From the NCBI GenBank assembly GCA_963422735.1, contig OY730476.1:1728001-1792000 (forward strand): a DNA stretch of 64,000 nt, in the 5' to 3' direction. The stretch comes from Candidatus Latescibacterota bacterium. GTDB taxonomy: Bacteria; Latescibacterota; UBA2968; UBA8231. The position numbers were made by a program, and so were the translations under genes. A model generated the notes under the pieces. The model ran no database searches. It saw only the letters and a program-made list of their open reading frames with translations, and was not told the origin of the DNA. Of this stretch, positions 1 to 5,344 are shown in pieces. Each line of letters starts with the position of its first letter. The first letter of the stretch is position 1.

Positions 1-3000
1 TCGCCGCGCACAGCCGCCCTAGCAAAGACTACGCCTGGCTGCGCGGCCCTAGCGGCCCGACCCAAAATGTGGTAATCGGCGCGACCGGGCTGTTGGGCCG
101 CTTCCCGCGCCTCGGTCCAGCCTTGGTTGGTAGCGGCCAAGCCCCATAAAGCACGCGGTGCCCGCACCTTGGTCTCCTCGACCGATAGGCCGTCGCGCCA
201 ACAACCGCGCTGGGCGAATAGACCGCCGTCTTCCCGATAGATCAGCCCGCCGCCCACGTATTGGATCAACTGCTGTTGGCTGCCCCGCGCCCCCGATAGC
301 GTCAACAAGGCTAGGGTCCCCAAGTCGTTGTCGTCGAAATCGGCCTGCCGGTAGAAAGCCGCCACTAACTCGTCGCTGTACATTTGCCACTCGTCCCAAT
401 TGATCTCTTTGGGTTGCTCAGGCCACTCCCTGCTCGAACCCAAGAAGGGATTGAAGGAGGCCCCCGACTGCTTGCAGACCTCAAAGCCGCGCCGCGTTAG
501 CTGGTCGAGCACTTCCAGTGCTCGCTCCCAACCCTCGCGCTGCAGCACCTGAGCTAGCAAGCGGTTGAGTGTGCGCTTGGTGAATAGCCGGCTGCCATCC
601 ACGGCCCCTTTGGTCAGCTCCTCCACTTCAGCGCGACCTTCCTCGGTGCGGCACAGCCGAGCCAAGCCCCAGCTCATGCCGTGATAGTTGTCGGCTATGT
701 AGCGCCATACATCCGCATCGCGCTGTATGTGTCCGGCCACCGACAGCGCGGTTCCGGCTTCGGCCTGAGCTTCTTCAGTGAGGGGCAAAAACACCTCGAT
801 GTGGTCGCCGTCGAAATCTAGCTCCATCAGTCGGCAAACGCGCGGATGGACGCGCACGGCAGCCCCGGCCAAACGCTGCGGACGAAAGGCCACCACCGCA
901 GTGGGCGGCACGTGGCCCTCGTCCACCAGCACCCGCTGGGCACTGTACAGCAGCACCCACGAGCGTGCCATAATCGCGTCTAGAACCTCAGCCGCTCGGG
1001 CTGAACGCCGCGCACGACCCATCTCCCGCTCTACCTGAGGCCCAAACAAAGCCCAAGCCATTTCCTCGGGCAGGCCCACTTGGTCGAGATTCAGTTCAAA
1101 GCCCGAAGCGAGCGCGGCTCGGCCACTGAACAGCGGTCTGGCCTCGAAGTGAAGGAACTCCGGGCGCAACAACGCGGCAAAAAAATCCTCCACCCGTTGG
1201 GCCACCTGGGCCACTGCGGGGCCGGTTAGGGCCTCGGGTGCATCGCTATCGACGACGCGTTGCAAGCGCTCATTGGCTTCGACCAAATCCTCGAAGCAGG
1301 CTCGGATTGGATCGAACTCGGTCCTCGCGGGCAAGGCAACGGGAGACCCCACCGTCCCGATCTGGTGCCCCGGGGCCCACGGGTGCGGCACTAGCTGGGC
1401 CAAGGTCAGCCCCTCGGGCTCGGCAAAGGAAAAGCGCAACTCCGCGCCCGCCAATTTGGCCCGTATCCCGGCCATACCCAACAACTGCTGCAACAAGGCA
1501 AAGCGCGGGGACGGGGCTGGGGACGGGGACACCGGGCCGGTGGTTAGGCGCTGGCCCAGCGTATTGGCGTCGGGCCGCTCAGCTGCGGCCGTGTTGAACA
1601 AAGCGTGGATATTGGCTACGGCCCCGGCCTCACACAAAGCTCCGTAGGCCATCATATCGAGCTCTGGGCCGCCGGCCCTTGCCACCGCGGTTTCCAAGCG
1701 TTCGGCCGCGGTGTGGGTCAGGCGGCCCCAGTACACCCAACCCACGGTACTGCGATAGGGCAGCTTTGCGCCTTTGAGGGTCAGTTGCTCCATGCCGTCT
1801 TCGGGCAGTCCCGCCTCGACTAGACGCGCTTTCAACATCTCTTCGCTGGGTGCCTCGAAAGGCGGCACCACCGCCGGAGTCTCTTCGGCCCGGGCAATGC
1901 GACCCATGACCGCCTCGCGCTGCTGGCCGAAATTGAGCCGCGAGACCATACTGGTGGGACTGAAGATGAGCTCTACCAGCGCCCCATCGGGCAACTGCGG
2001 CATGTCGGCGTCGGGCAGGATGCGGGTCACCACCCCTTTGGCACCGTGGCGATTGCCCATGCGGTCTCCCACCCCGACTGCGGCGGGAAAATTCATCCGC
2101 GCCGCAGCCGACTCGCTGATGACCAAGCCATCCTCAAACGTGTCCCCGTCCCACATGATGAAGGCGGTCAGCAGATTGTACCCACCCCAAAAGTCGGGGG
2201 CTTCGGGCTCGTATCCCGTCTGCACTAGAGCTGGCTCGGGTTTGTTGCCCTTAGAGGCCAAGCACTGGTCGTACTGCTGGCGGAACCAACCCGTAGAGTG
2301 GACCGGAGCCGCTGTATCGGCGGCACTCGTCCACTGGCGCATCATGTTGATGCCCATCAGGGCGCGATTGGTATCGTCGTGTTCGAGAAAGGGCACCATG
2401 GAGGCCGAAAAGCCCAAGATGCTGTCGGGCGCATTGTCGATCCGTTCGAGCTTGCCGTCGCGGATGCGAGCCCCGCGGGCCACTTCGAGCACGCGGCCAA
2501 TATTGGGGCCCTCAGGGGTGCAGTAGGGGCACACTAGGCCGTATTGGCTGTAGGGGAAAACGCCCTGATCGTCAAAAGGCTCGACGACAACGGGGATCAA
2601 AGTCAGCCGCCGCAGATGGGTATAGCGGTCGAGCCAGTTGGTCGCCTGTAGGTACTGCGAGGTTTCCCCCAAGTGGAAGTCGCGCATCCAGGCGTCCAGC
2701 GGCAGCCAGTTGCGCACCAAGTCGCCGTCCCAAGCCAACTGTTCGGGGGCCACCTCCAACCTTTGGTCAATAAAGTCGTAGAGCTGCTCACCCACGCACA
2801 GAATCCGCGCTTGTTCGAGCGCACGCCGGTCGGGATAGGGAACCACGACCCGGTAGTTGCCTTCAATGTGGAAAAGGCCGTCTCGGTCGGGCCGCGGCAA
2901 ATCCCGGTACTCAACCTCGACCGAGGCATGGCCGAGCCCCAAACTCAGTTTAACGGAAAAAGTATAAGGGTCCTGTTGTTCGACTCGATAATCGGCCAGC

Positions 3001-3092
3001 GGCAAGCGCTCGCCCAAAAGCCGGGGCAGTCGCTGGTGGACGAAAAGGTCAAAGGACTCCCGGTGCCAAGGTACGTCGAGATTCAATGTCAT
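1..3092 (-). CDS. Miniature single-chain RNA polymerase beta-beta' fusion-like protein (>1030 aa, 3' end outside window; not in ORF track)
   Basis: Manual translation from ATG 3092 (GGAGGA SD; ATGA overlap with sigma stop) is stop-free to the edge. RpoB-like motifs in order: GLFHIEGNYRVVV, SQYLQATNWLDRYTHLRRLT, YGLVCPYCTPEGPNIG, PFLEHDDTNRALMGINMMRQ, WDGDTFEDGLVISE, GDRMGNRHGAKGVV, SRLNFGQ, TVGWVYWGRLTH. RpoC-like motifs follow: FSGRA..VGLPEEMA, VHPRVCRLMELDFDGDHIEVFLPL, SGARGS. Confidence 0.93.
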   Translation of the reverse strand, partial: MTLNLDVPWHRESFDLFVHQRLPRLLGERLPLADYRVEQQDPYTFSVKLSLGLGHASVEVEYRDLPRPDRDGLFHIEGNYRVVVPYPDRRALEQARILCVGEQLYDFIDQRLEVAPEQLAWDGDLVRNWLPLDAWMRDFHLGETSQYLQATNWLDRYTHLRRLTLIPVVVEPFDDQGVFPYSQYGLVCPYCTPEGPNIGRVLEVARGARIRDGKLERIDNAPDSILGFSASMVPFLEHDDTNRALMGINMMRQWTSAADTAAPVHSTGWFRQQYDQCLASKGNKPEPALVQTGYEPEAPDFWGGYNLLTAFIMWDGDTFEDGLVISESAAARMNFPAAVGVGDRMGNRHGAKGVVTRILPDADMPQLPDGALVELIFSPTSMVSRLNFGQQREAVMGRIARAEETPAVVPPFEAPSEEMLKARLVEAGLPEDGMEQLTLKGAKLPYRSTVGWVYWGRLTHTAAERLETAVARAGGPELDMMAYGALCEAGAVANIHALFNTAAAERPDANTLGQRLTTGPVSPSPAPSPRFALLQQLLGMAGIRAKLAGAELRFSFAEPEGLTLAQLVPHPWAPGHQIGTVGSPVALPARTEFDPIRACFEDLVEANERLQRVVDSDAPEALTGPAVAQVAQRVEDFFAALLRPEFLHFEARPLFSGRAALASGFELNLDQVGLPEEMAWALFGPQVEREMGRARRSARAAEVLDAIMARSWVLLYSAQRVLVDEGHVPPTAVVAFRPQRLAGAAVRVHPRVCRLMELDFDGDHIEVFLPLTEEAQAEAGTALSVAGHIQRDADVWRYIADNYHGMSWGLARLCRTEEGRAEVEELTKGAVDGSRLFTKRTLNRLLAQVLQREGWERALEVLDQLTRRGFEVCKQSGASFNPFLGSSREWPEQPKEINWDEWQMYSDELVAAFYRQADFDDNDLGTLALLTLSGARGSQQQLIQYVGGGLIYREDGGLFAQRGCWRDGLSVEETKVRAPRALWGLAATNQGWTEAREAAQQPGRADYHILGRAARAAQPGVVFARAAVRG

Positions 3093-3688
3093 TGATGTTC
3101 CTCCGGGTTATTAATGGCCTGCCAAGCCCGTGAGATCTGGCGGCGGCCGTGGTGCAGACGCGACTTTACGGTGCCTTCGGGAATGCCCAGTCGCTCGGCC
3201 GCATCTCGCACTTCGACTTGGGCGTCGTAGATCAGACGGAAAACCTCGCGCTTGTCCTCGGACAGTGCCTGTACTTGTCGCCGCAGCCAGCGCTGCTGGT
3301 CGGCCCGTTCCACCTCGGCGTCGGGGCGCTCAGACGCGGCCTCAATCATCCATTCGGGCACTTGGTGCGTTTCCTTCTCCACGGTTTCAGACAGCATTTC
3401 CAGCCGTTGCTCCCGCCGCCTTTGCACAGTGCGCAGGTGAGTTAGAGAAAGATGAGTAGCAATGCGGAACAGCCAGCCAGCCGCAGAGCCTCGACCGCTC
3501 CATTGGCCAGCTCGGTTCCACACCCGCAAGAAAACCTCCTGCACCACGTCGTTGGTACTCGCATCATCGCGGACGATGCGGCGCACGTGGTGGTGGATCT
3601 GCTCCCGATAGCGCTCAAAGAACTGCTCAAACGCGCGGGCATCGCGTTCTTTTATTTGCACTATGAGTTGTGAGTCCGGTATCTGCAT
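3089..3688 (-). CDS. ECF-type sigma-70 factor (199 aa)
   Basis: Region 2 (DVVQEVFLRVW...GWLFRIA) and region 4 (AERLGIPEGTVKSRLHHGR). ATG 3688 with GGAGG SD is preferred over the ORF-track start at 3907. Confidence 0.93.
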   Translation of the reverse strand: MQIPDSQLIVQIKERDARAFEQFFERYREQIHHHVRRIVRDDASTNDVVQEVFLRVWNRAGQWSGRGSAAGWLFRIATHLSLTHLRTVQRRREQRLEMLSETVEKETHQVPEWMIEAASERPDAEVERADQQRWLRRQVQALSEDKREVFRLIYDAQVEVRDAAERLGIPEGTVKSRLHHGRRQISRAWQAINNPEEHQ

Positions 3689-3707: not shown

Positions 3708-3734
3708 AGACGCCGCCCGGAAAGTACAGGTTCA
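3708..3734 (-). promoter_or_regulatory. Putative ECF-type (autoregulatory) promoter TGAACC-N16-CGTCT
   Basis: Minus strand reads TGAACC tgtactttccgggcgg CGTCT, ending 20 nt before the sigma ATG. Matches the general AAC/CGT ECF promoter consensus. Confidence 0.6.
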
Positions 3735-3780: not shown

Positions 3781-3881
3781 CTCCCCGAATTGACTCACTA
3801 GTCGAGCACGGTATCTTACCACCCACCGCCTGAAGACCAGCCTCAACCCTTACAGACGCTCCTGCGCTAGATCGAGACCCC

Positions 3882-4559
3882 ATGAGCCTAACACCAGCCC
3901 AACTCAACCAGTTCCACCGCGACGGCTATATCATCGTCTCCGATCTGTTCACGGCCGACGAGATGGATGCCGCCCTAGCGGCGATGGAACAGATTTTCTA
4001 CGGCCAATCCTTCCAGCAATGGTTGGCCGTTTGCGACCGCGGTGAAGCGGCCAGAGTCTCGGACGGCTTTACCACCACGCACGACCACTCGGAGGGGCGC
4101 TCGCAATTTCCCGTGGGTGCGCCGGCCTTGGACCGGCTAATAGAAAAAGAGACCTACCTCGACATTTTTGAGCAATGCTTAGGCGCAAAAGCTAGCTACT
4201 GCAATGCCCACCTCTTTATGCGCTCGGGGCCTACTGACAAGCGCCATCCCCACAACCCTTGGGAGGGCTACCACATGGACCACTACACTAATTGCCTGCT
4301 GCCGCCCCACGACCAGACAGGCCGGTTTGACTACGTCAATTCGGGGGTGTACCTGCACGATGTCGGCGACGACGGTGCCCCCATGCTGGTCATCCCCGGC
4401 TCGCACAAAGTAGCCGGTCCCGCTTTTGTGCGAGCCTTTGCCCAAGGCAACGCTGCGGGTGGGTCCTTCAAAGACCTGTGCCAAGTCACCGAACTAGCCG
4501 CCCCGGTCCCCGCCACCGCCCGGCGCGGGAGTCTATGGCGGCCATCCGCCGCCTGCTAA
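3882..4559 (+). pseudogene. PhyH-family Fe(II)/2OG dioxygenase, C-terminally truncated
   Basis: LTPAQLNQFHRDGY, HMD, VIPGSHK. The sequence breaks after ARRGS, before the distal His strand. Confidence 0.75.
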
Positions 4560-5344
4560 GTCACCTCGATCCAGCGGCCTTGCGGGGCCGCCTCACGGCC
4601 ATCCCGGTAGTCAACGAGGCGGCCTATTGGCGCGGCCAGCGCACGGCCGAAGATGGGCTGGACTTGGCCCGCACCTGCCCAGGTCGGCCCGATGGCTCGA
4701 TTACCGAGCGCACAGCCCACGCCGTCAGCCAAGAAATCCGCCGGGCCGACTATCTCATCGACCTGCACAGCGGCGGGCTAGTCATGGAATTCTACCCTAC
4801 CGCGGGGTACACCCTGCATCCCGATAAAGCCATCCTCGAGGTGCAACGGCGCATGGCCCGAGCGCTGAATATGCCCATCATCTGGGGCACTTCGGCCCGG
4901 CTCGACGGACGCACGCTTTCGGTAGCCCGCGACGCCAACGTGCCAGCCATCTACGCCGAGTGGATGGGGGGTGGCACGTGCGATCCCCAGGGCGTGGATG
5001 CTTATTTCGAGGGCTGCTTGAACATCTTGGCCGAACTAGATCTGATCGACCGCACCCTGCCGCCCCTGCACACCGAGTACACCGTGGAGGACGACCGCGA
5101 CAACGCTGGCCACGTGCAGCTCAATTACCCAGCGCCCTTTGCTGGCTATTTTGAACCCCAAGTGACATTGAAAGCACCCGTGCAACCGGGCGATGTGATC
5201 GGCACGGTGGTAGATCATCTGGGGCAGCGGCGCGAGGAAGTGGTATCGACCCAAGCGGGCTTGATCCTGTGTCTGCGGGTCTTCAACCGCGTCCACCAAG
5301 GCGACAGTTTGGCCGCGGTTTTAGAACTCGACCCTTCCCAATAA
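4528..5344 (+). pseudogene. Succinylglutamate desuccinylase/aspartoacylase (AstE/AspA) family, N-terminally truncated
   Basis: DLARTCPG, LIDLHSGG, AIYAEWMGG and a C-terminal biotinyl-like hairpin are present. The N-terminal G-x-HGDE Zn motif is missing. Confidence 0.75.

Follow-up and report, generated by a model that had tools for sequence, protein, structure and literature searches.

Locus and gene architecture

The DNA analysed here, called the window, is a stretch of 64,000 nucleotides (nt) from a Candidatus Latescibacterota bacterium (assembly GCA_963422735.1, contig OY730476.1, positions 1,728,001 to 1,792,000 of the forward strand), and its left edge carries two adjacent genes, one for a sigma factor of the extracytoplasmic function (ECF) type and one in which shortened beta and beta' subunits of RNA polymerase are fused in a single chain, hereafter the mini polymerase. 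The fused gene is one minus-strand open reading frame (ORF) that runs from window position 3092 leftward past the edge (genome 1727943-1731092) and encodes 1049 amino acids (aa), about 40% of the ~2700 aa of rpoB plus rpoC. Its frame closes 19 codons (57 nt) to the left of the edge, and window positions 1-960, the part taken up by a preliminary description of this DNA, correspond to the C-terminal third of the gene. The motifs quoted in that description were all found in place, on the minus strand and in one frame; what it missed was the main context, namely the beta::beta' fusion, the status of the gene as an accessory paralogue and its coupling to an ECF sigma factor of its own. The gene and the parts of its product are as follows.

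1..3092, minus strand: mini polymerase gene; last 19 codons and stop outside the window (ORF and genome extension; Pfam; AlphaFold2 (AF2) model)
1488..3092, minus strand: beta-like half, aa 1 to ~535, with fork region, first double-psi barrel and beta C-terminal region (hhalign; structural superposition (VIA))
2130..2135, minus strand: E320-D321, equivalent to Escherichia coli beta E813/D814 (hhalign)
2034..2069, minus strand: beta catalytic motif GDRMGNRHGAKG, aa 342-353, with R344 equivalent to E. coli K1065 and K352 to K1073 (hhalign)
1170..1322, minus strand: clamp-helix-like coiled coil, aa 591-641 (AF2 helices 591-615 and 620-641; hhalign from E. coli beta' 265)
906..956, minus strand: remodelled NRAP loop VLLYSAQ with clade-specific insertion, aa 713-729 (hhalign and family alignment)
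804..824, minus strand: Mg-binding motif ELDFDGD, aa 757-763, with DFDGD at 818-804 (hhalign and family alignment)
96..296, minus strand: SGARGS/F-loop region and bridge helix, aa 933-999 (hhalign probability 97.6% to the genome's own beta' 667-780; AF2)
1..95, minus strand: C-terminal tail, aa 1000-1049, last 19 aa outside the window (family conservation; protein end; structural alignment range)

Pfam detects Rpb2_3 (aa 146-210), Rpb2_6 (aa 340-467, E 2.3e-29) and Rpb1_2 (aa 733-781, E 6.9e-11) on the 1049-aa chain, and the NCBIfam models for rpoB (TIGR02013, 158.2 bits, cut-off 801) and rpoC (TIGR02386, 76.6 bits, cut-off 963.5), like the fused rpoBC model PRK09603 (148.5 bits, cut-off 5372), remain below their cut-offs. 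The same genome encodes a normal rpoB-rpoC pair at 161815-169616 that exceeds the NCBIfam cut-offs with 1814 and 1765 bits, and the mini polymerase is therefore an accessory paralogue: an extra, fused and heavily shortened beta::beta' protein outside the curated rpoB/rpoC families.

An AF2 model of the whole chain, built on 50 family sequences, reached a mean predicted local distance difference test score (pLDDT) of 92.1 and a predicted template modelling score of 0.89, with pLDDT below 50 only at aa 721-727. The closest sequence matches in the PDB were bacterial beta (E 3.6e-42) and bacterial beta' (E 5.5e-18), archaeal matches being weaker. Equivalences are given in E. coli numbering from profile-profile alignment with hhalign, which covered 458 columns of beta (E 6.5e-77) and 383 columns of beta' (E 1.6e-47). 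The hallmarks of two-barrel polymerases were found as DFDGD at aa 759-763, GDR..KG at aa 342-353 and a bridge helix at aa 971-999. Of the elements of normal beta and beta', the chain has kept the two double-psi barrels with Asp triad, switch 2, F-loop, bridge helix and clamp helices, as well as a beta'-type C-terminal piece. Absent are the lobes and flap of beta and, from beta', the N-terminal zinc region, the rudder and the whole segment that separates the bridge helix from the C-terminal piece, trigger loop included.

In the beta-like half, aa 10-86 align with E. coli beta 31-148 and aa 88-549 with 444-1341, leaving the lobes (~149-443) without a counterpart and skipping residues 600-652, 707-755, 825-1042 (the flap, in three adjacent gaps) and 1124-1179. 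Its fold matches Rpb2/beta chains with Z 27-31 and a root-mean-square deviation (rmsd) of 2.5-2.9 Å over 450-520 residues. The motifs GDRM, GAKG, SRLN and LTH start at aa 342, 350, 384 and 458, and R385 and H460 are the equivalents of E. coli beta R1106 and H1237. Family residue counts were taken from 66 full-length representatives at 50% identity, among which E320 is kept in 57 and D321 in 61, aa 352 is K in 62, and aa 344 is K in 59 and R in 5 (K/R 64/66). The R that replaces K1065 in GDRM is a conservative toggle, both the K and the R state occurring within the genus. These equivalences, with those of the Asp triad given below, bear out the earlier statement that the Mg-binding triad and the beta-side catalytic residues are kept.

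In the beta'-like half, aa 596-993 align with E. coli beta' 265-791, with residues 314-340 (the rudder), 519-576 and 651-674 skipped. Folded alone, this half gave a pLDDT of 89.9, and its top structural matches were cellular-type largest subunits, cellular and large-virus Rpb1/beta' chains reaching Z 17.8-20.1 over 430-480 residues and Mycobacterium tuberculosis beta' aligning at Z 17.8 with 481 residues, rmsd 9.7, from chain residue 5 to 1260. In normal holoenzymes the clamp helices are the docking site of sigma region 2 and the flap is the anchor of sigma region 4. The rudder that follows the clamp helices in E. coli beta' is deleted here, as a 25-residue skip in the hhalign alignment. SGARGS starts at aa 933 (window 296-279), and the bridge helix, previously read as a half helix, is modelled as a single helix of 29 residues, aa 971-999, with the hhalign alignment running through beta' 791.

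The bridge helix is followed directly by a tail of 50 residues, and since this is all that remains after it and the profile alignment ends at E. coli beta' 791, the chain contains neither a trigger loop nor a jaw or SI3. That the trigger loop is absent had already been proposed, together with a search for its motif beyond the left edge; that search was run, and the ORF ends after 19 further residues with no trigger loop there. The tail (aa 1008-1030 being window 71-3) is among the best-conserved stretches of the family. Its proposed likeness to the beta' C-terminus has little profile support (hhalign, aa 1000-1049 against the beta' C-terminal segment, E 0.31, not significant) and agrees with the structural alignment range of the beta' half, which extends to M. 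tuberculosis residue 1260 and fits a beta' C-terminal region.

Coupling to an ECF sigma factor

Upstream of the mini polymerase gene, the following features were recognized.

3089..3688, minus strand: ECF-type sigma gene, 199 aa, ATG at 3688 (Pfam and NCBIfam; start from homologue alignment)
3709..3734, minus strand: ECF-like promoter candidate TGAAC-N16-GCGTC, then a GGAGGG ribosome-binding site (conservation in the genus and in distant loci)
3790..3819, minus strand: genus-conserved non-coding block with an inverted repeat (genus alignment)

The sigma gene lies directly upstream of the mini polymerase on the same strand, with stop and start overlapping by 4 nt in ATGA. Its product consists of regions 2 and 4 only (Pfam Sigma70_r2 3.8e-15, r4_2 5.3e-13) and scores 97.2 bits against a cut-off of 42.9 on TIGR02937, and no specific ECF equivalog model in NCBIfam reached its cut-off. 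The family profile gives 316 bits for the cognate sigma and 83 for the next sigma paralogue in the genome.

This arrangement recurs well beyond the window. A sigma gene stands upstream on the same strand in the window and in all four loci from Latescibacterota, Poribacteria and Caldilineaceae that were family members among the 80 kept in a pattern scan of the genome collection, the others being ordinary rpoB/rpoC. In the phylum, it is upstream in 28 of 30 loci, the window's own included, and within -60 to +300 nt of the called polymerase start in 25 of those 28; two loci (L112 and L113) are offset by ORF calling and one (L116) has a gap of 353 nt. Across 168 genomes of the phylum, 62 carry sigma and polymerase, 4 the polymerase alone, 1 the sigma alone and 101 neither. 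The four polymerase-alone genomes comprise two fragments and two deletions (G143 and G146), the latter being also the two of the 30 phylum loci that have no sigma gene upstream, and the sigma-alone case sits at a contig end. In G146 (L117), the deletion took the sigma gene and the first 93 polymerase codons, and the promoter and the first sigma codons remain.

The promoter candidate ends 20 nt before the sigma ATG, and TGAAC-N16-G(T/C/A)GTC is found before sigma across the genus alignment and in 13/13 more distant loci, with an N15 spacer in one of these and the element further upstream in another. Presumably, this is a standard autoregulated ECF promoter, which it resembles. About 55 nt upstream of it, the 3790-3819 block is conserved even where the neighbour further upstream is different, and it may be an operator for some regulator.

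Complex prediction of sigma with the beta' half gave a score of 0.38 (runs 0.42, 0.38 and 0.35) against 0.00 for the best of three controls, with at least 32% of contacts shared between runs and a partner pLDDT of at least 66. Of 80 solved complexes used for calibration, 58 reached the mark, as did 2 of 110 mismatched pairs; with scores of 0.60 or lower, only 7 of the 80 solved complexes reached it, together with both mismatches.

Two further observations concern this part of the locus. In the sigma alignment (A3, columns ~160-175), the linker between regions 2 and 4 holds an invariant P..W (VPGWMID-like), unusual for the variable ECF linker, and by analogy with region 3.2 of larger sigmas this motif might reach into the active-site cleft. 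In some genomes of two other genera, genes are inserted between sigma and polymerase: an ORF of 586-597 aa that on visual inspection looked like a fused ABC permease/ATPase exporter (L119:1153-2946 and L122:1333-3093) and a 381-aa protein (L121:3367-4512). The insertions are lineage-specific, and the inserted genes may be part of the sigma's regulon in those lineages.

Family and distribution

An HMMER search over 1.84 billion cluster representatives returned 319 proteins at E<=1e-30, ~100 of which are full-length relatives with 36-52% identity that all end at query position ~1047, and a word-indexed search returned 753 matches, with 44-91% identity and 1000-1070 aa among the matches listed. 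Family members occur in metagenome-assembled genomes of Latescibacterota, Poribacteria, Chloroflexota and Gemmatimonadota. Within the phylum, 66 of 168 species genomes carry the mini polymerase, patchily, with 21/30 in the genus and 25/31 in another family. As a family, these proteins of ~1000-1070 aa retain both barrels, the Asp triad, bridge helix and clamp helices; their lack of trigger loop, flap, lobes and rudder is family-wide and old, so that the loss of the trigger loop is not special to this gene.

The names encountered in databases for family members were 'hypothetical protein' and, for the family's clusters in the ESM Atlas, 'hypothetical' or 'DNA-directed RNA polymerase family protein'. 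Literature searches, made over listings and abstracts, brought up no paper that describes a fused mini polymerase linked to a sigma factor. A term search of an ECF reclassification paper (PMC7826278) gave 0 occurrences of Rpb1, Rpb2, 'beta subunit', 'RNAP-like' and Latescibacteria, and the available passages of PMC2919709 contain no description of such a polymerase.

One close relative, P0013, is 88% identical to the query and labelled Gemmatimonadota, and the other named close relatives are Latescibacteria; its label could reflect either a binning error or a recent transfer between phyla sharing a habitat. The ESM Atlas also contains unnamed clusters in which Rpb2_6 and Rpb1_2 occur together on chains of 1164-1787 aa, in some cases with Rpb1_5, and fused beta::beta' proteins of intermediate size may form a wider series.

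Genomic neighbourhood

The module is chromosomal, among metabolic genes and without mobile-element or defence context. A third conserved gene was sought, and the flanks were found to differ between loci; the flanking genes encode PhyH dioxygenases, GFO/IDH/MocA oxidoreductases, a TetR regulator, a hydrolase, a P-loop AAA_26 protein (CobQ/MinD-type) and a lyase. No alpha or omega gene is linked to the mini polymerase. PADLOC returned 0 families for the enzyme and one marginal, unrelated match for sigma (E 4.7e-4), and the matches in PHROGs were the generic beta and beta' families alone. On both sides, the module is flanked by genes of the PhyH family (window 3882-4559, plus strand; L001:15092-15940, plus strand). 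The upstream one encodes 225 aa, compared with 318 aa in L008, and overlaps an AstE/AspA-like ORF at 4478-5344; it may be truncated.

Remodelled active site in one clade

The window's polymerase departs from its family at just those active-site positions that border the ribose pocket (R425, N458 and A459 in E. coli beta'). The loop VLLYSAQRVLVDEGH (aa 713-727, window 956-912) holds the equivalents of the NRAP motif, with Y716, S717 and Q719 at the positions of E. coli beta' N424, R425 and P427, followed by an insertion of 5-7 residues within which aa 721-727 are the poorly modelled stretch. In ELDFDGD, E757 and L758 stand at N458 and A459, and D759, D761 and D763 at D460, D462 and D464. The earlier observation that the equivalents of R425 and N458 are replaced is thereby confirmed, as S717 and E757. 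In the bridge helix, L982 occupies the position of E. coli beta' R780, which is L in 12/13 of the clade described below and R in 42/62 others.

Across the 66 representatives, the Asp triad is kept in 64, 64 and 63 sequences, the position two before DFDGD is N in 37, D in 18 and E in 5, and the next position is A in 47; at the NRAP equivalent, R is found in 55, A in 43 and P in 58. By these counts, the family consensus reads NADFDGD and NRAP, and ELDFDGD and YSAQ with its insertion are derived, lineage-specific states. Among 173 full-length members, a sample that is rich in close relatives of the query and whose counts are not independent events, all three Asp are present in 160, the Arg is lost in 66, 57 of them with E757, and it is kept in 107, with E757 in 4. 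A maximum-likelihood tree groups 57 sequences in one split with support 1.0, 56 of them without the Arg and with E757, and the substitutions are held down to ~51% identity. On this tree the remodelling has essentially one origin.

Selection was estimated against 19 orthologues of the remodelled clade with 86-91% identity, all but one in the window's genus. Over the whole gene, the ratio of nonsynonymous to synonymous substitution rates (dN/dS) was 0.152-0.206; within aa 600-800 it was 0.13-0.28, and within the tail 0.10-0.19. Low dN/dS together with retention across the clade indicates that the remodelling is maintained by selection and is not decay. The preliminary description had held that homologues with mostly NADFDGD and NRAP would make the changes lineage-specific decay; the lineage-specific part stands, and the decay part is contradicted by the clade support of 1.0 and dN/dS of 0.15-0.21. 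Decay of a redundant rpoBC paralogue toward a pseudogene, for which the derived nature of the changes and the poorly modelled inserted loop might speak, is also at odds with an open, full-length frame, the same substitutions across the clade to ~51% identity and a high-confidence AF2 model, and is considered highly improbable.

The replaced residues have known roles. As given in the available parts of Mäkinen et al. 2021 (PMC7862312), R425 is the main determinant of the choice of nucleoside triphosphates (NTPs) over 2'-deoxynucleoside triphosphates (dNTPs): with R425K, selectivity fell by a factor of 17 in binding and of 25 in incorporation, and with R425L pausing before dG was lost as well. 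The same parts describe N458 as a minor determinant, the effects of N458S being smaller, about 4-fold, and Q929, on the trigger loop, as the third ribose contact (PMC7862312). Since R425 and N458 are replaced and Q929 is gone with the trigger loop, all three known contacts to the 2'-OH are absent in the clade, which points to altered sugar selection. Accordingly, the earlier proposal of altered sugar selection can be regarded as a reasonable inference from the roles of R425 and N458 (PMC7862312, in part), and in the remodelled clade discrimination between NTPs and dNTPs, or another sugar-modified substrate, is most likely relaxed or changed.

Another part of the family differs in another way. 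In a large Poribacteria-type branch (P0084-P0121), SGARG, which holds the equivalent of E. coli beta' R731, is replaced by KSRAFTSR, and some members also read NANFDGD. From the alignment, this branch appears to be a second, independent remodelling of the surroundings of the active site.

Possible function of the two-gene module

The descriptive core of these results is solid: the mini polymerase is a conserved, selected, accessory single-chain enzyme that is genetically locked to a private ECF sigma factor. As for its function, we favour, with a probability of roughly 55%, that the sigma docks on the retained clamp helices and that the pair works as a small sigma-dependent polymerase. The two genes would then form a private transcription-type machine made of an ECF sigma and a single-chain mini core, in which sigma region 2 would bind the clamp helices and the complex would open DNA at cognate sites and make RNA with an always-open active site. 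Such an enzyme would be expected to lack trigger-loop proofreading and cleavage as well as flap-dependent pausing and termination, and to have weak hybrid-separating elements. In the remodelled clade, with R425 to S, N458 to E, A459 to L, R780 to L and the inserted loop, it would still act as a metal-dependent nucleotidyl transferase.

Several results weigh against this interpretation. The flap, as the anchor of sigma region 4, is deleted, yet the promoter spacing is that of an ordinary ECF promoter. No regulon was recovered: TGAAC-N16-GNGTC has 19 matches in the genome against ~27 expected, the strict form of the promoter has 2, one of them the operon's own, and among spacers of 0-40 nt no other length is enriched. 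The complex prediction supports the sigma contact weakly, and solved sigma-beta' complexes may explain why it passed. In G143 (L124:5990-6103), the full polymerase was kept after a clean excision of sigma, of which the last codons remain. The locus was absent from the sequencing runs on record as RNA. The change of substrate is deduced solely from which residues were replaced. The triad itself is not inviolate, as six members of the remodelled clade have each lost one Asp (SFDGD, YFDGD and four DFDGN), four members outside it read NANFDGD, with 11 single-Asp losses in all, and P0124 and P0192 are without the whole triad and keep their length and C-terminal motif. Separately, in one run guessed to be RNA, of unproven nature, four short contigs fall within the gene (1-222, 865-991, 1176-1331 and 1448-1553), and nothing was drawn from this run.

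The Asp losses have some features of their own. P0124 and P0192 have also lost part of the beta-side Lys and E-D residues, and the two sequences without a triad suggest a non-catalytic role in some lineages. All six clade members with one lost Asp keep an acidic residue at 757, and the four members outside the clade that lost the first Asp have N there; that E757 could serve as a replacement metal ligand is speculative.

With the flap missing, the promoter spacing ordinary, no regulon and weak support from the complex prediction, two other explanations stay alive. The better of them, which we regard as possible and clearly the less probable course, is that sigma does no more than activate expression of the gene by way of the host RNA polymerase, and that the mini enzyme, like YonO or QDE-1-type enzymes, then needs neither sigma nor a promoter to synthesize RNA or primers, its templates being single-stranded DNA, RNA, or DNA that is damaged or foreign. 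Given the ordinary ECF spacing and the absence of a flap from the mini enzyme, the host core is at least as plausible a reader of the promoter as the mini enzyme. The absence of further promoter copies in the genome, the one genome that keeps the enzyme without sigma and the genes lying between sigma and enzyme in some genomes agree with such a role, and loss of rudder and flap would be expected of an enzyme that handles no long transcription bubble. It accords less well with the near-perfect co-occurrence of sigma and enzyme and the ATGA overlap, with clamp helices that are retained and conserved, with a cognate sigma that has no other visible target in the genome and, weakly, with the complex score of 0.38 against 0.00 for controls. 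Nor is there any mobile-element or defence context for an enzyme of this kind (0 PADLOC families, metabolic neighbours).

The other explanation, rather improbable, is that the mini enzyme is a sigma-binding decoy or RNA-polymerase mimic that buffers or times sigma, catalysis being secondary or lost. ECF operons usually encode an anti-sigma factor at such a downstream place, and the mini polymerase lies directly downstream of the ECF sigma and is translationally coupled to it, in a two-gene unit with no other anti-sigma candidate. The retained clamp helices would suit a decoy too, as would the destroyed triads of P0124 and P0192 with conserved length and tail and the single-Asp losses, six of them in the remodelled clade. 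Against a decoy, the Asp triad is complete in 160/173 members, the residues for NTP and Mg on the beta side are conserved in 57-66 of 66, purifying selection includes the active-site region, and ~1000 residues with both barrels and a bridge helix far exceed what a decoy needs. A nuclease or nucleotide sensor on a polymerase scaffold, as offered earlier, is most improbable: two-barrel active sites can in general hydrolyse RNA and the ribose-contacting residues are changed, but nothing in the analysis speaks for either option, the Pfam scan found no sensor or effector domain, intrinsic cleavage in cellular enzymes needs the trigger loop that is absent here, and YonO is described in the accessible parts of its report as lacking hydrolysis (PMC5467207).

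Returning to the small sigma-dependent polymerase, a more specific version for the clade with S717, E757, L758, L982 and the inserted loop is a sigma-guided polymerase without preference for ribonucleotides, which would use dNTPs, mixed or modified nucleotides at sites chosen by sigma. We regard this version as doubtful. If it were true, the clade would offer a bacterial parallel, of recent evolution, to the transition from an RNA-polymerase-type active site to the DNA polymerase PolD, and the whole family, if sigma-dependent, would be a second, orthogonal transcription system on a ~115 kDa core in free-living and symbiotic bacteria.

The multi-subunit core of cellular RNA polymerases, of ~400 kDa, is regarded as invariant, and the enzymes as dependent on the trigger loop. 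From a conserved chromosomal family under selection in no fewer than four phyla, one can read which parts of the two catalytic subunits can be removed when active centre, bridge helix and the docking site for sigma are kept. It could yield a minimal sigma-dependent polymerase for mechanistic work and synthetic biology, as well as a naturally occurring test of the contributions made by trigger loop, flap and rudder; in the remodelled clade, two residues with a demonstrated role in sugar selectivity have both been replaced in nature.

Comparison with known systems

The bacterial RNA polymerase core is the closest relative, the mini polymerase being clearly derived from bacterial rpoB/rpoC and sharing its catalytic residues and an ECF-type sigma. 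The core differs in having ~2700 aa in two chains, whereas the mini polymerase is without lobes, flap, rudder, zinc region, trigger loop, jaw and SI3, and R425 and N458, present in the core, are replaced by S717 and E757 in the remodelled clade.

YonO of the Bacillus prophage SPbeta is alike in being a single chain of ~100 kDa that has no trigger loop and exists beside a normal polymerase, and differs in being prophage-borne and very distant from cellular enzymes, according to the accessible parts of its report (PMC5467207); it is set apart here by description. The mini polymerase, in contrast, is recognizable as beta plus beta' by plain Pfam and phmmer searches, is chromosomal and has its own sigma. 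In the same parts of that report (Forrest et al. 2017, PMC5467207), YonO has no homology to the trigger loop and is nonetheless as efficient as cellular polymerases and processive, as well as more error-prone and without RNA hydrolysis. The absence of a trigger loop alone thus does not predict a slow or abortive enzyme, and the earlier expectation that processive synthesis would be altered does not follow from it (PMC5467207).

K2ORF6p of yeast cytoplasmic linear plasmids is likewise a beta-then-beta' fusion of ~970-1050 aa with shortened spacers, and was compared by description from the available passages of PMC6211774. It differs in that the beta' C-terminal regions, among them ones depicted as trigger helices, are partly assigned to a separate small subunit, K2ORF7p, and in belonging to a eukaryotic, poxvirus-like system with a capping enzyme and a helicase and no sigma (PMC6211774). 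In these passages, the 2018 paper on the yeast elements gives a beta::beta' fusion as unknown in any other RNA polymerase (PMC6211774).

The phage two-barrel polymerases (the nvRNAPs of AR9 and PhiKZ, gp96 of P23-45 and the crAss-like gp66) and QDE-1 share the fold and have fewer accessory domains. Against the beta' half, AR9 reaches Z 15.7 over 239 residues and PhiKZ 12.9 over 159, both weaker than cellular beta', and gp96, QDE-1 and the crAss-like protein reach 8.1, 6.7 and 5.4, compared with 17.8-20.1 for cellular-type beta'. We know of no use of an ECF sigma by the phage two-barrel polymerases or QDE-1. The mini polymerase resembles YonO, K2ORF6p and the phage nvRNAPs in dispensing with many accessory modules, and an ECF sigma is described for none of the three. 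By sequence and fold, the mini polymerase is a reduced bacterial beta plus beta'.

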